The notes beneath the pieces were generated by a model. The model did not search any database, was not told the origin of the DNA, and saw only the letters and a program-made list of their open reading frames with translations. Below, piece by piece: positions 10,999 to 14,975 of a stretch of DNA of 64,000 nucleotides (positions within the stretch are counted from its first letter, which is position 1; each line of letters begins with the position of its first letter). The translations under genes were made by a program, and so were the position numbers. The DNA is from Escherichia phage vB_EcoM_Maryam: sequence record PQ799574.1; one strand, written 5' to 3'.

Positions 10999-11592
10999 AT
11001 GAACACACTGAAGAAAATTGTTGAGTTTATTCGCACTAAACTTGGTTCTGCTATGGCTAAAAATTTATCTGTTGAAGAACAGTATACTGCTGCGGCAGCA
11101 AAACTACTTGATAAGATTAAAGATCTAAAAACTGCTTCTGTTAAATCTATTAATGAAGAAAAACGTATTCGTGAACTTATTGTCGAAAAGAATCGACAGG
11201 CCGAATCAAAAGAGCGTGAAATTCGCAAGCTTCTTTCCGAAGGTCAAGATGTAACAATGCATGCTAAACTTGGTTTACTATATCGTCGAACAGCTGAGCA
11301 GTTGACTACTAAAGCTGATGGTTATGCTGAAATGCGAATTGAAATCGCCAAGAAAGTAGTTGAGTTAGATGATGCTCGCCAAGAACTTGCAGTTAAATTG
11401 GAATATATCCGTGAAACTCGCGCCGCGAATGCCCTTGGAATTAGTACTGCTGATGATGTAGTTGAAATTGCAGCACTGACTAAGGTTGATATTGAAGATA
11501 CTCTTGCTCGAGTTGAAACCTTTAATGGTAATATTTCTGGGGTTGAAACTACCTCTGCCGATGTTCAGGAATATATTAATTCTCTGAAATAA
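10999..11592 (+). CDS. hypothetical coiled-coil protein
   Basis: 197 aa, heptad-rich. Confidence 0.5.
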
Positions 11593-11597
11593 TGATA

Positions 11598-11613
11598 AGG
11601 GGCTTCGGCCCCT
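11598..11613 (+). terminator. stable UUCG-tetraloop hairpin (aggggc-ttcg-gcccct), weak T tract
   Basis: perfect 6-bp GC stem with UUCG loop after the 10999 gene. Confidence 0.45.
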
Positions 11614-11633
11614 ATTACTTGGAGTAAATAGGA

Positions 11634-12248
11634 ATGAAAATGCAAATGCAAAGTGATTTCAATTCAATGTTTGAAGAGTTTCAAAGACAGGTTGATGTTC
11701 CAGACCAATTATTAAATGCTCTTAAACGTATGGCAGAAGGACGTAATTATTATTGGGGTTCTTCATATGAAACTGATGAAAGTCTTTCTGGAAGATTTTC
11801 TAGAGGTAAAAAGTCTTTAATACGTCCTGGAATACTTATTAACAGTATTGAATCAATTCATTTATTAACATGCGATTTTGATGTTGAATTTACTGATTTT
11901 GTTTCTCCTGAATGGACGGTCTGTTATTTAAACGACGATTATGATTATCTTGGCGTTTATAGTTTAAGTGATGCATGGTTTAAACGTAATTTACAAAAGT
12001 CAAATTTATTCTATATTGATACTACTGTAAAATTTCAGGGCAAGAAATATTTCTTTACTCTTATAGTTGATTCTGAAACGAAGCATGAAAATAAACGTAT
12101 TCTTAGTAAAAAGAATATCTTAACTATAGTTGATGATCTTTTTGATAAATTCGTAGAAAATCCCAATTTTGAAAGCGATTTATTATTAGAAAAATTTGTT
12201 AAGGAATGTAGAGAATATGTCAAAGCCATCACTATACCTTCCAAGTAA
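11634..12248 (+). CDS. hypothetical protein
   Basis: 204 aa; C-terminal FVKECREY motif shared with next three ORFs. Confidence 0.5.
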   Translation: MKMQMQSDFNSMFEEFQRQVDVPDQLLNALKRMAEGRNYYWGSSYETDESLSGRFSRGKKSLIRPGILINSIESIHLLTCDFDVEFTDFVSPEWTVCYLNDDYDYLGVYSLSDAWFKRNLQKSNLFYIDTTVKFQGKKYFFTLIVDSETKHENKRILSKKNILTIVDDLFDKFVENPNFESDLLLEKFVKECREYVKAITIPSK

Positions 12249-12609
12249 ACCTTTGAAGTATGAACTAAAGCGTCAGATAATTTCTACTGATGTGTTAATA
12301 GGTCCTGTGGTAGCTGTATCATTTGTGATTCTGCTGATTGCTGGAATGGTTATAGACGTTATGACTGATATTGAATCTGGTGTAATATTTGCGTCAACAC
12401 TAATTCTTCCAATGATAGTTCCATTTTTATTAGTACCCGTAAATTGGATAGGATACTGGTATCAAGGAAGACATTATCGTAAACGTGTACGCGATTGGAA
12501 AGCTCAGTGTAAAAAGATTAAAAAGGAACACCAGCTTAAACTAGATATGTATGAATTTAATGAAATTATGAAATTTGTTAAGGAATCACGATGCAAAAGC
12601 CAAAATTAA
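12217..12609 (+). CDS. membrane protein (paralogous array member)
   Basis: 130 aa from ATG 12217; TM helices; C-terminal FVKESRC. Confidence 0.45.
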   Translation: MSKPSLYLPSKPLKYELKRQIISTDVLIGPVVAVSFVILLIAGMVIDVMTDIESGVIFASTLILPMIVPFLLVPVNWIGYWYQGRHYRKRVRDWKAQCKKIKKEHQLKLDMYEFNEIMKFVKESRCKSQN

Positions 12610-12953
12610 ATAAAGTCAAATATTCGTTTCCTGAGTCACTATTAATTCTTGCTGTATCAGTATTTGCAGCTCTTGCGGGTAGTCTTATTGGATTGTTAAT
12701 TGACTGTTTTATTTTAAACATTGACGGCACAGTAATTATAACAGAGGTTTGGAGTGAACTTCGTTATACTATAGCGATTTCATTATTTTCATTCTTTGGT
12801 ACCATGTTATATTTTCATTATGATAATTTTAAAATAAATTGGCAAAGAAAAAAGGATTACAAAATACAATTAAAGGAATATAATAGCTACATGTCTTATA
12901 TTGAAAAAGAATCAATGGAAGAGTTTGTGAGTGATTGTAGGAAAATTAAATGA
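12591..12953 (+). CDS. membrane protein (paralogous array member)
   Basis: 120 aa; two TM helices; C-terminal FVSDCRKIK. Confidence 0.5.
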   Translation: MQKPKLNKVKYSFPESLLILAVSVFAALAGSLIGLLIDCFILNIDGTVIITEVWSELRYTIAISLFSFFGTMLYFHYDNFKINWQRKKDYKIQLKEYNSYMSYIEKESMEEFVSDCRKIK

Positions 12954-13434
12954 TTTTAAAAACTCGCTGGTATGATTTAGATGATGGGGATGATGGCATT
13001 TCAGTTGATAGAGTTGACTGGAATGGTTGTTCCGAAGATATGAAAAATTTGTTGATTAGGGAGTTTAGAATGGGATATCAAGCAGCTAAGCCATCTATTA
13101 TAACAGATGATAAATTCGTGTGTATTCATAATGGTCGCGCTAAGTTAACGAACGCTGATTGGTTCACAGATAAAATTATGATTCTGTGGTATATTATTAG
13201 TCTTCCTGTGACATCATTCGTATTTTACTTTTTTATAAAAAATCCAATGGACAGAATAGGAGATTGGATTCTTTTAACCATACTTGTTAATATTTTTACA
13301 GCAGCAATATTATCAGGAATATGGTGCGTGTTCATTGAAATGCCATGGCGTTTACGCAGACAGCAAAAGATTTTTGATGAAAAGAAATACGCTCAAAATT
13401 TAAATAACTTTATCACTGAATGCAGGAAATTAAA

Positions 13435-13438
<4 letters not shown>
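12950..13438 (+). CDS. membrane protein (paralogous array member)
   Basis: 162 aa; TM helices; C-terminal FITECRKLK. Confidence 0.5.
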
Positions 13439-14407
<969 letters not shown>

Positions 14408-14501: not shown

Positions 14502-14975
14502 ATGAAAACATATCAAGAATTTATTACTGAAGCAGCTATTAATTCTCAAATTATTGCTGAATCTTTTACTGATCTTTTGAAATTTAAAAAAGGACAGAAA
14601 ATCACTGCTGTACTGGATGATGGTACAGAAGTTGAGATGGATGTACAAGGATATAATTATGCAGTAGATGGAAAACTGTATAATAAATCTCATGCTAAAT
14701 TTGATTCATTTGACGACTTTGTTAATACAGTTGAAGATGAAAAAACTCGTAGATCCATTGCAACTGGTGATGCTAAGGTTCTTATGGCACATGGTCATGA
14801 ACGCATTCGCGCTAAACAGAATAAAATGGGTGAAGATAATTTCGCATTAGTTGGTTATCAATCTGGTAAACAAACTTATGGCTATCAACGTACTGCTACC
14901 ATGTATAATAAAAATGGTAAAATTGCCTTTGTGAATAGTAAAGGTTCTATTCAGTACGTTAAATCGTTCAAATAA
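14502..14975 (+). CDS. internal protein (ipII/ipIII position) with capsid targeting sequence MKTYQEFITEA
   Basis: 157 aa; canonical CTS N-terminus; sits next to gene e. Confidence 0.6.
   Translation: MKTYQEFITEAAINSQIIAESFTDLLKFKKGQKITAVLDDGTEVEMDVQGYNYAVDGKLYNKSHAKFDSFDDFVNTVEDEKTRRSIATGDAKVLMAHGHERIRAKQNKMGEDNFALVGYQSGKQTYGYQRTATMYNKNGKIAFVNSKGSIQYVKSFK

Follow-up and report, generated by a model that had tools for sequence, protein, structure and literature searches.

A conserved C-terminal peptide in genes e.5 to e.2 of T4-like phages, a probable docking helix at the inner membrane

We analysed a window of 64,000 nucleotides (nt) from Escherichia phage vB_EcoM_Maryam (sequence record PQ799574.1). 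It contains four consecutive open reading frames (ORFs) that share the C-terminal motif F-[VI]-x-[ED]-[CS]-R and correspond to genes e.5, e.4, e.3 and e.2 of phage T4. In the reading that we favour, they probably represent a family, specific to T4-like phages, that is defined by a C-terminal cytoplasmic amphipathic helix. This helix would serve as a shared docking element at the inner, cytoplasmic face of the membrane. About half of the T4 genes, e.2 to e.6 included, have no known function. The four genes are already known T4 ORFs, publicly listed as four separate families of unknown function. The shared motif, the paralogy of e.4, e.3 and e.2, and the pairing of e.5 with its upstream neighbour e.6 appear undescribed in the literature that could be searched.

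The C-terminal motif and its carriers

The phage is T4-like and belongs to the genus Tequatrovirus. Over positions 11400-13900, the window is 100% identical to Escherichia phage vB_EcoT_BCU-2 and 90-98% identical to about 500 other T4-like phage genomes, with nearly all matches full-length. We assigned the names e.6, e.5, e.4, e.3, e.2, nudE and e by comparison with the annotated RB51 and T4 records. An earlier sequence-only reading of this DNA had placed the four ORFs between the tRNA genes and gene e, which agrees with their identity as T4 e.5 to e.2. Their orthologs are 93-98% identical in hundreds of Tequatrovirus genomes, in the shared order e.6-e.5-e.4-e.3-e.2-nudE-e. The four genes are:

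11634-12248, + strand: e.5, 204 amino acids (aa), soluble; Pfam Phage_T4_Y06P, PHROG 2607; end LLLEKFVKECREYVKAITIPSK
12217-12609, + strand: e.4, 130 aa; Pfam Phage_T4_Y06O, PHROG 2604; end IMKFVKESRCKSQN
12591-12953, + strand: e.3, 120 aa; PHROG 2330; end SMEEFVSDCRKIK
12950-13438, + strand: e.2, 162 aa; Pfam Phage_T4_Y06M, PHROG 2203

Their motifs are:

12195-12212, + strand: FVKECR of e.5; AAG GAA at 12201-12206 is the best anti-Shine-Dalgarno match upstream of the e.4 ATG
12574-12591, + strand: FVKESR of e.4; AAG GAA at 12580-12585 is the Shine-Dalgarno sequence of e.3
12924-12941, + strand: FVSDCR of e.3; AGG AAA at 12939-12944 (Arg-Lys codons) is the Shine-Dalgarno sequence of e.2
13409-13426, + strand: FITECR of e.2; AGG AAA at 13424-13429 is the Shine-Dalgarno sequence of nudE

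All four motifs are where the sequence-only reading had seen them. Of the protein ends that it gave, each contains the motif, but e.5 does not end at FVKECREY: it continues for 11 residues beyond the motif Arg (tail ECREYVKAITIPSK).

The profile matches are full-length for e.5 (PHROG 2607, E-value 6.8e-110, residues 3-204), e.4 (PHROG 2604, E 8.6e-71, residues 1-130), e.3 (PHROG 2330, E 6.3e-59) and e.2 (PHROG 2203, E 3.3e-79). The Pfam set used for the window scan was without the PF26876 (Phage_T4_Y06P) model. This family is precomputed on e.5 relatives that are 94-97% identical. Likewise, close relatives of e.4 carry PF26873 (Phage_T4_Y06O), and PF26896 (Phage_T4_Y06M) matches the e.2-derived part of a natural e.4::e.2 chimera. 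The three Pfam families are all of unknown function. In UniProt, T4 e.5, e.4, e.3 and e.2 are named Y06P, Y06O, Y06N and Y06M.

The motif is real and non-random. To call it a C-terminal peptide that defines the family is more apt than to call it a junction sequence. A six-frame translation of the whole 64 kb contains F[VI]x[ED][CS]R at five places, four of which are the C-termini of e.5, e.4, e.3 and e.2. Among the 104 plus-strand ORFs with 60 aa or more, the amino acid composition predicts 0.0045 with the motif in their last 18 residues, compared with four observed. None of 20,000 shuffles had more than one.

The profile of 62 distinct tails is [L/I]-[E/N]-x-F-[I/V]-x-E-C-R. Leucine or isoleucine is present at position -3 in 48 of the 62, and isoleucine or valine at +1 in all of them. 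The Glu at +3 is found in 49 tails, the Cys at +4 in 50 and the Arg at +5 in 55. Glycine, methionine, lysine, tyrosine or other residues replace the Glu in 13. The stop codon of each ORF follows 0 to 15 codons after the motif. On a helix, the hydrophobic residues at -3, 0, +1 and +4 would share one face. Orthologs of e.5, e.4, e.3 and e.2 were aligned between Tequatrovirus, Mosigvirus (JS09) and Dhakavirus (VR5 and dhaeg). Their overall identity is just 21-47%, yet in each of the four gene sets the motif residues belong to the few columns that are invariant.

Peptide-level selection and the gene junctions

We compared the motif codons in 50 distinct instances from six genera. Phe is encoded by TTT (41) or TTC (7), and Cys by TGT (22) or TGC (17). 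For Arg, five codons are used: CGA (7), AGA (12), AGG (11), CGT (10) and CGC (6). This codon variety indicates that the motif is kept by selection as a peptide and not as a DNA element.

The sequence-only reading had also described a matching nucleotide motif that overlaps each downstream start codon. Junction DNA is indeed alike in two pairs, e.5/e.4 with e.4/e.3 (16-nt identity) and e.3/e.2 with e.2/nudE (about 60 nt), both with p<0.001. Given the varied Arg and Cys codons, the matching nucleotide motif is largely a by-product of the peptide. The remaining four of the junction pairs have no significant DNA similarity. Downstream of the ATG, the similarity of e.3/e.2 to e.2/nudE gave p = 0.006, which was lost on correction for 18 tests. 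The overlap with the start codon is present at e.4/e.3 only, where the Arg codon and the e.3 ATG share one base, the A at 12591 (cgATG). The other three ATGs are 4 to 8 nt after the Arg codon. Every motif is located between -7 and +22 nt of the downstream start. Two starts had to be corrected: e.4 begins at ATG 12217 (MSKPSLY, conserved in orthologs) and not at TTG 12196, and nudE begins at 13435. The last gene of the series is:

13435-13875, + strand: nudE (Nudix hydrolase), final cistron of the overlapping series

The overlaps at e.5/e.4, e.4/e.3, e.3/e.2 and e.2/nudE are 32, 19, 4 and 4 nt. The last two are ATGA stop/start overlaps (12950-12953 and 13435-13438). At each junction, the best anti-Shine-Dalgarno match of the next gene falls inside the motif codons. 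The pairing energies (dG) for e.4, e.3, e.2 and nudE are -6.1, -6.1, -4.2 and -4.3 kcal/mol. The spacing from this match to the e.4 ATG at 12217 is long, about 10 nt. For e.4 and e.3 the source is the K-E codons (AAG GAA), and for e.2 and nudE the R-K codons (AGG AAA). In other genera, GAGGAA or AAAGGA is found at the same spot. This double use probably contributes to the motif preference at +2 and +3. It is a clear example of a coding motif whose codons double as the ribosome-binding site of the next gene.

The overlaps, together with Shine-Dalgarno sequences inside the upstream ORF, have the anatomy of translational coupling and are compatible with it, so coupling is putative here. The four junction RNAs fold no better than their shuffles (z-scores +1.0, +1.5, -0.7 and -0.2). 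Since they are unstructured, each start may equally well be used independently, and an obligatory coupling through unmasking is disfavoured. Promoter-like sites are near the shuffle expectation (28 against 19.9 ± 4.0) and not clearly enriched.

Three membrane hairpin paralogs

The proteins e.4, e.3 and e.2 have two hydrophobic segments each, and e.5 has none. The earlier description of three small multi-pass membrane proteins is thus borne out. In e.4 the membrane hairpin consists of residues 31-49 and 58-76 (nt 12307-12363 and 12388-12444), followed by a basic tail. Its net charge is +3 at the N-terminus, -2 in the loop and +9 in the tail, which predicts an N-in/C-in topology. The first membrane helix of e.3 covers about residues 19-37 (nt 12645-12701), and a weaker second hydrophobic segment about residues 57-75. 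An acidic N-terminal domain of about 76 residues precedes the membrane helices of e.2 at 78-96 and 111-129 (nt 13181-13237 and 13280-13336). The three share a charge pattern, with positive or neutral N-termini, acidic loops and basic tails. From this bias, both ends are predicted to be cytoplasmic.

By pairwise BLASTP, the similarities within this group are marginal (e.4 to e.3, 20% identity over 111 aa, E 0.011). With hhalign, the profiles of e.4 and e.3 align along the entire tail that follows the second membrane segment (42 columns, probability 88.8%, E 2.5e-6). The same holds for e.3 and e.2, aligned over the whole post-membrane tail (37 columns, probability 83.6%, E 8e-6). Aligned directly, e.4 and e.2 share 10 columns only, so their link is transitive. 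The N-termini of e.4 and e.3 are collinear (M-x-K-P-x-L). These tail-wide profile similarities and the collinear N-termini indicate that e.4, e.3 and e.2 are diverged tandem paralogs with a hairpin and a tail of about 40 residues. A fifth member, RB69ORF133c, and further copies in other genera belong with them. The duplicated family proposed by the sequence-only reading is therefore supported for these three genes, where similarity is not limited to the last 6-8 residues. It does not include the body of e.5, whose shared part comes close to that limit.

The soluble carrier e.5 and its neighbour e.6

The protein e.5 shares about 12 C-terminal residues with e.4, e.3 and e.2 (hhalign, 12 columns, probability 47%). 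BLASTP gave no alignment between e.5 and the paralogs, and what e.5 shares is the terminal helix only, not the family body. The highly divergent e.5 counterpart of Dhakavirus aligns with it in the body over 29 columns (E 2e-5), and F-I-x-E-C-R-E-Y-x-K is invariant. In the AlphaFold model of e.5, residues 182-198, which include the motif region, are helical at low confidence. A Foldseek search with this model found nothing at E <= 1e-3. Its weak top matches were small alarmone synthetases and nucleotidyltransferases. With template modelling (TM) scores <= 0.27, they were not regarded as evidence.

Upstream of e.5 stands:

10999-11592, + strand: e.6, 197 aa; always immediately upstream of e.5

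This gene is far better conserved than its neighbours, with 55-88% identity to the orthologs aligned from five other genera. By tblastn it is present in 1,106 phage records, including Aeromonas phages. In every lineage examined (nine lineages), an intact e.6 is followed by a gene for a soluble protein of 160-270 residues that ends with the motif. The motif reads KFVKECREY in Tequatrovirus, QFIMECREY in Mosigvirus and RFIKECREY in Dhakavirus. It reads EFVKMCRTK in Winklervirus, EFVKMCRNN in Jiaodavirus, DFINYCRGQ in Karamvirus and EYIMQCRKKL, followed by the stop, in Bragavirus. Aeromonas phage Riv-10 has LFVDYCRRT, and there the e.6/e.5 pair adjoins nrdD and thioredoxin genes, not the tRNA genes and e. 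Aeromonas phage AS-zj has two e.5-like copies, SFINYCIV and SFVEYCIE. In RB43, e.6 is apparently truncated, and no motif-bearing gene follows it. As judged from these gene neighbourhoods, e.5 has the widest distribution among the motif carriers and always stands directly after e.6.

The single-sequence AlphaFold model of e.6 has an overall confidence score (pLDDT) of 74, and above 84 for residues 31-130. It presents a long helical hairpin and C-terminal helices. Against the PDB, its nine best Foldseek matches are all Vipp1/IM30 (E 2e-4 to 1.7e-2, TM 0.47-0.55, full-length). Matches in the viral library include a phage protein annotated as PspA/IM30 family (TM 0.63). On this model, e.6 would resemble Vipp1/PspA in fold only, which we treat as a lead.

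The C-terminus of e.6 (11560-11592) is itself conserved as [D/E]-[V/I/L]-x-[D/E]-Y-[I/L/V]-x-S-L-K before the stop, with the same aromatic-I/V-x-x-hydrophobic-basic pattern as the motif. If the two were related, five consecutive genes would have a similar terminal helix. We set this idea aside, as hhalign gave it no support.

Distribution and turnover of the family

The fifth member, RB69ORF133c, lies between e.3 and e.2 in Mosigvirus. It encodes a two-helix hairpin with the tail NFIKECRGK before its stop. Winklervirus, Karamvirus and Jiaodavirus have three to six tandem ORFs upstream of nudE that end with F-[I/V]-x-x-C-R. Their tails include EFITECRGK, as well as YFIKECR, DFIKGCRK and NFISKCRTKR directly before the stop. 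Motif-bearing membrane hairpins are found in Tevenvirinae only, plus weak candidates in Bragavirus. An exhaustive HMMER search with the three-paralog profile against 1.84 billion representative proteins gave ten matches at E <= 1e-3. Nine are recognisable relatives of e.2, e.3 or e.4, and the tenth is marginal (E 7e-4), unrelated-looking and without the motif. A word-indexed homolog search with the family alignment listed close relatives only. Likewise, a locus search of viral contigs with e.6 as the anchor gave 14 loci only, all from three genera. At the level of detectable sequence similarity, the family is confined to T4-like phages (Straboviridae).

Several loci differ in their set of copies. 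Phage VR5 (locus L006, 4151-5033) has no e.4, and e.3 comes directly after the e.5-like gene, unlike in the related phage dhaeg. In OP555981.1 (locus L025, 3001-3321; P0176), e.3 is deleted and a natural in-frame chimera joins e.4(1-31) to e.2(86-162). It is present on 5 contigs. Its two parts meet within the first membrane helix, away from the motif, at a 7-nt microhomology (TCCTGTG). Another e.4 variant (P0179) is without both membrane helices. In reference T4 (locus L005, 7001-7490, NC_000866; also L003, OZ035787), e.2 is split: an A-run has lost 1 nt, and a 1-nt insertion about 75 nt later compensates for this frameshift. The result is a 102-aa ORF and a 63-aa ORF ending with FITECRKLK. 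The intact 162-aa e.2 is present in the window and in most relatives. Taken together, these sequences indicate that copies of the family are gained, lost and fused in frame.

Proposed function and alternative explanations

Pfam, NCBIfam and PADLOC scans of e.6 to e.2 found nothing significant, and the literature that could be searched holds no functional work on e.2 to e.6. In a genome-wide knock-down screen of T4, e.2 to e.6 were all scored 'Not Fit', with function unknown (PMC11879866, supplementary files 8 and 15). We take this score to mean no fitness defect, so that these genes would be accessory on the laboratory host.

In the favoured explanation, the motif would be a docking helix that binds something. 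It would have arisen in e.5, the ancestral carrier, and would later have been copied onto membrane hairpin proteins. The 16-nt identity of motif codons between e.5 and e.4 in Tequatrovirus is consistent with copying from e.5, but it is no proof. Through this helix, e.5, which is soluble, and the paralogs anchored in the membrane may meet a single shared partner on the cytoplasmic side of the inner membrane. Foremost among the candidates for this partner is the conserved neighbour e.6. The module would have an accessory function in the interaction with the host, dispensable in the laboratory. This explanation is supported by the selection on the peptide, the helix-like periodicity, the predicted cytoplasmic tails, the presence of the motif on soluble and membrane proteins, and the pairing of e.5 with e.6. 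The shared motif, the paralogy and the e.5/e.6 pairing turn five anonymous ORFs into one testable module, with the F, I, C and R residues or the tail peptide as the handle.

Several observations weigh against it. The e.5 model is poor (pLDDT 56, from a 14-sequence alignment). Since e.5 and the membrane proteins have unrelated bodies, some room must be left for convergence on a short helix-ending pattern. Orthologs of e.4 have serine, isoleucine or valine at the Cys position, and several distant members replace the Glu, so the chemistry of the motif is not strictly required. Regarding e.6, PspA_IM30 is absent from the 25 Pfam families listed at E <= 10 for six e.6 orthologs. PDB profile searches with e.6 returned no PspA or Vipp1 chain. 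Alignment of e.6 by hhalign with an approximate E. coli PspA sequence gave a probability of 0.15%. Long coiled-coil hairpins like that of e.6 match many folds. The tie between e.6 and the motif proteins is one of synteny only. The binding partner of the motif is putative, and a knock-down without phenotype provides no functional read-out.

A more specific version states that e.6 is a phage member of the PspA/Vipp1/ESCRT-III superfamily, and that the shared helix of e.5, e.4, e.3 and e.2 docks onto it. We consider this version unlikely. If true, T4-like phages would have their own 'phage-shock-like' module, with e.5 as a soluble regulator and an expandable set of membrane anchors. During infection, such a module could stabilise the inner membrane or remodel it, for instance in a period of delayed lysis. 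A PspA/Vipp1-like e.6 would mean a phage-owned membrane-maintenance system; otherwise, the family would be an ordinary set of accessory genes specific to its lineage. Small membrane proteins are common partners of PspA-type proteins, namely PspB/PspC for PspA and LiaI for LiaH, and PspC and LiaI bind or anchor their PspA-type partner. By analogy only, the e.6 hairpin model followed by small membrane proteins with cytoplasmic helical tails is suggestive of PspA/Vipp1 (IM30, ESCRT-III) with PspB/PspC, or of LiaI/LiaH. However, e.6 is without PspA_IM30 sequence similarity and its model comes from one sequence. In addition, none of the searched libraries revealed similarity between PspB, PspC or LiaI and any of e.5 to e.2.

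The motif could instead be structural, without a common partner: a helix cap, a self-association surface or a metal-binding Cys. The paralogs would then act singly, for example in superinfection exclusion or host takeover, as further small membrane proteins of T4 do. We regard this as possible but doubtful. The hydrophobic pattern at -3, 0, +1 and +4 would suit self-association equally well, and the gain and loss of copies is free. There are also weak, non-significant matches to SieA-like, phage membrane-protein and immunity families (e.3 to phrog_7745, E 0.051; e.4 to phrog_944, E 0.011, and to NF053699, E 0.076). What remains unexplained is that e.5, soluble and with an unrelated body, keeps the helix in every lineage, always beside e.6. 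Moreover, the Cys is not universal. We give little credit to a similarity driven by the nucleic acid, in which a repeated junction element (a ribosome-binding or coupling signal, or a recombination boundary of gene cassettes) has the peptide as its by-product. The nearness of the motif to the downstream start, the Shine-Dalgarno sequences in K-E or R-K codons, the two similar junction pairs and the lost or fused copies would suit it. Nevertheless, the use of five Arg codons and of both Cys and Phe codons argues against it, as do the four dissimilar junction pairs, the lack of RNA structure and the promoter-like sites that are not clearly enriched. The fusion breakpoint inside the first membrane helix is also contrary to it. 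At most, it explains the preference at +2 and +3 (AAG GAA).

Still less credit is due to a nascent-peptide motif that slows or arrests the ribosome over the next start codon and tunes termination-reinitiation. Such a role would account for amino acid conservation at a constant position by the downstream start, and for unrelated bodies that share their last residues only. Conversely, the distance from motif to stop varies from 0 to 15 codons, the homology of the membrane paralogs extends over about 40 residues, and the Shine-Dalgarno sequences at the junctions are accessible. To our knowledge, the motif has no resemblance to known arrest peptides, which also counts against this role. A relationship between the motif and MKTYQEFI[A/T]E/A (the final slash is the cleavage point), the T4 capsid-targeting sequence and prohead-protease site, is scarcely credible; gp21 would then cut the motif after I-x-E. 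F-I-x-E does match the end of the Ip4 targeting sequence MKTYQEFITEAA (14502), and internal-protein genes are in the same region. But the motif is C-terminal and not N-terminal, its conserved C-R is absent from the targeting sequence, and its Glu is replaced in 13 of 62 tails. Besides, three carriers are predicted membrane proteins with cytoplasmic tails. The probability of a chance or compositional coincidence is practically nil. The motif is short and was defined after being seen, but four occurrences against 0.0045 expected, and its recurrence in orthologs and extra paralogs of nine lineages, refute it by comparative data.

Other known systems share features with the motif-bearing proteins. 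The T4 internal proteins (ipI, ipII, ipIII, Ip4 and others) are likewise dissimilar proteins of the same variable region with one short conserved terminal peptide. In contrast, theirs is an N-terminal peptide that directs packaging and is cut by the prohead protease, whereas the e.5-e.2 motif is C-terminal, contains C-R and belongs to membrane and soluble proteins of an early operon. PeSL promoter/stem-loop cassettes mediate modular shuffling in T4-type genomes (PMC2839356, PMC4122927). Like the e.5-nudE junctions, they are short repeats at gene boundaries of variable regions, tied to gene gain and loss. However, PeSLs are a non-coding promoter plus a hairpin, whereas these junctions are coding and have neither RNA structure nor convincing promoters; the sole hairpin is between e.6 and e.5. 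The capsid-targeting/gp21, PeSL and RNA-structure readings were rejected. Small T4 inner-membrane accessory proteins such as Imm, Sp and RI are similarly short, non-essential and expressed early. There is no sequence relationship to them, with PHROG and NCBIfam matches below threshold only.

Neighbouring elements and minor observations

Two further features of the region are:

11598-11613, + strand: hairpin GGGGCUUCGGCCCC with a UUCG tetraloop, between e.6 and e.5
13913-14407 (window coordinates): lysozyme gene e

The hairpin GGGGCUUCGGCCCC is very stable, and the 101-nt region folds at -23.5 kcal/mol (z -2.1). It is listed as a putative stem-loop in the T4 record L13089. It may set e.6 apart from the e.5-nudE series, as a signal for transcript ends or processing or as an mRNA stabiliser.

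Some database entries call e.3 or e.4 'sulfurtransferase' or 'DNA primase', and e.6 'host specificity protein'. These names are without support in any profile library and look like annotation noise.

In Jiaodavirus, Klebsiella phage Metamorpho (locus L023, 10453-10767) has a 104-aa ORF with the motif (end LELFIAKCRINTPIN). It is located between nudE and e, outside the main array.

A second tandem family is present between e.3 and e.2 in Mosigvirus, Dhakavirus, Winklervirus and Karamvirus, and is absent from the window. It consists of 2-5 ORFs of 65-101 aa, at loci L002 (6357-7151), L006 (5030-6286), L007 (4352-5597), L022 (7326-7885) and L024 (6129-6655). Their ends, directly before the stop, are W-[V/F/L/Y]-x-S-S-x-x-C or W-x-P-S-S-C (GAWVSSSALC, GGWVASSHTC, GFWFTSSMSC and KIWYPSSC). 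With a final Cys behind a Ser-rich run, these ends resemble signals for modification or processing.

Finally, positions 14502-14975, after e and with a denV-less spacing, contain an Ip4-type internal protein gene with the capsid-targeting sequence given above. In T4 the same position is occupied by ipIII and ipII, which illustrates cassette replacement in this region.

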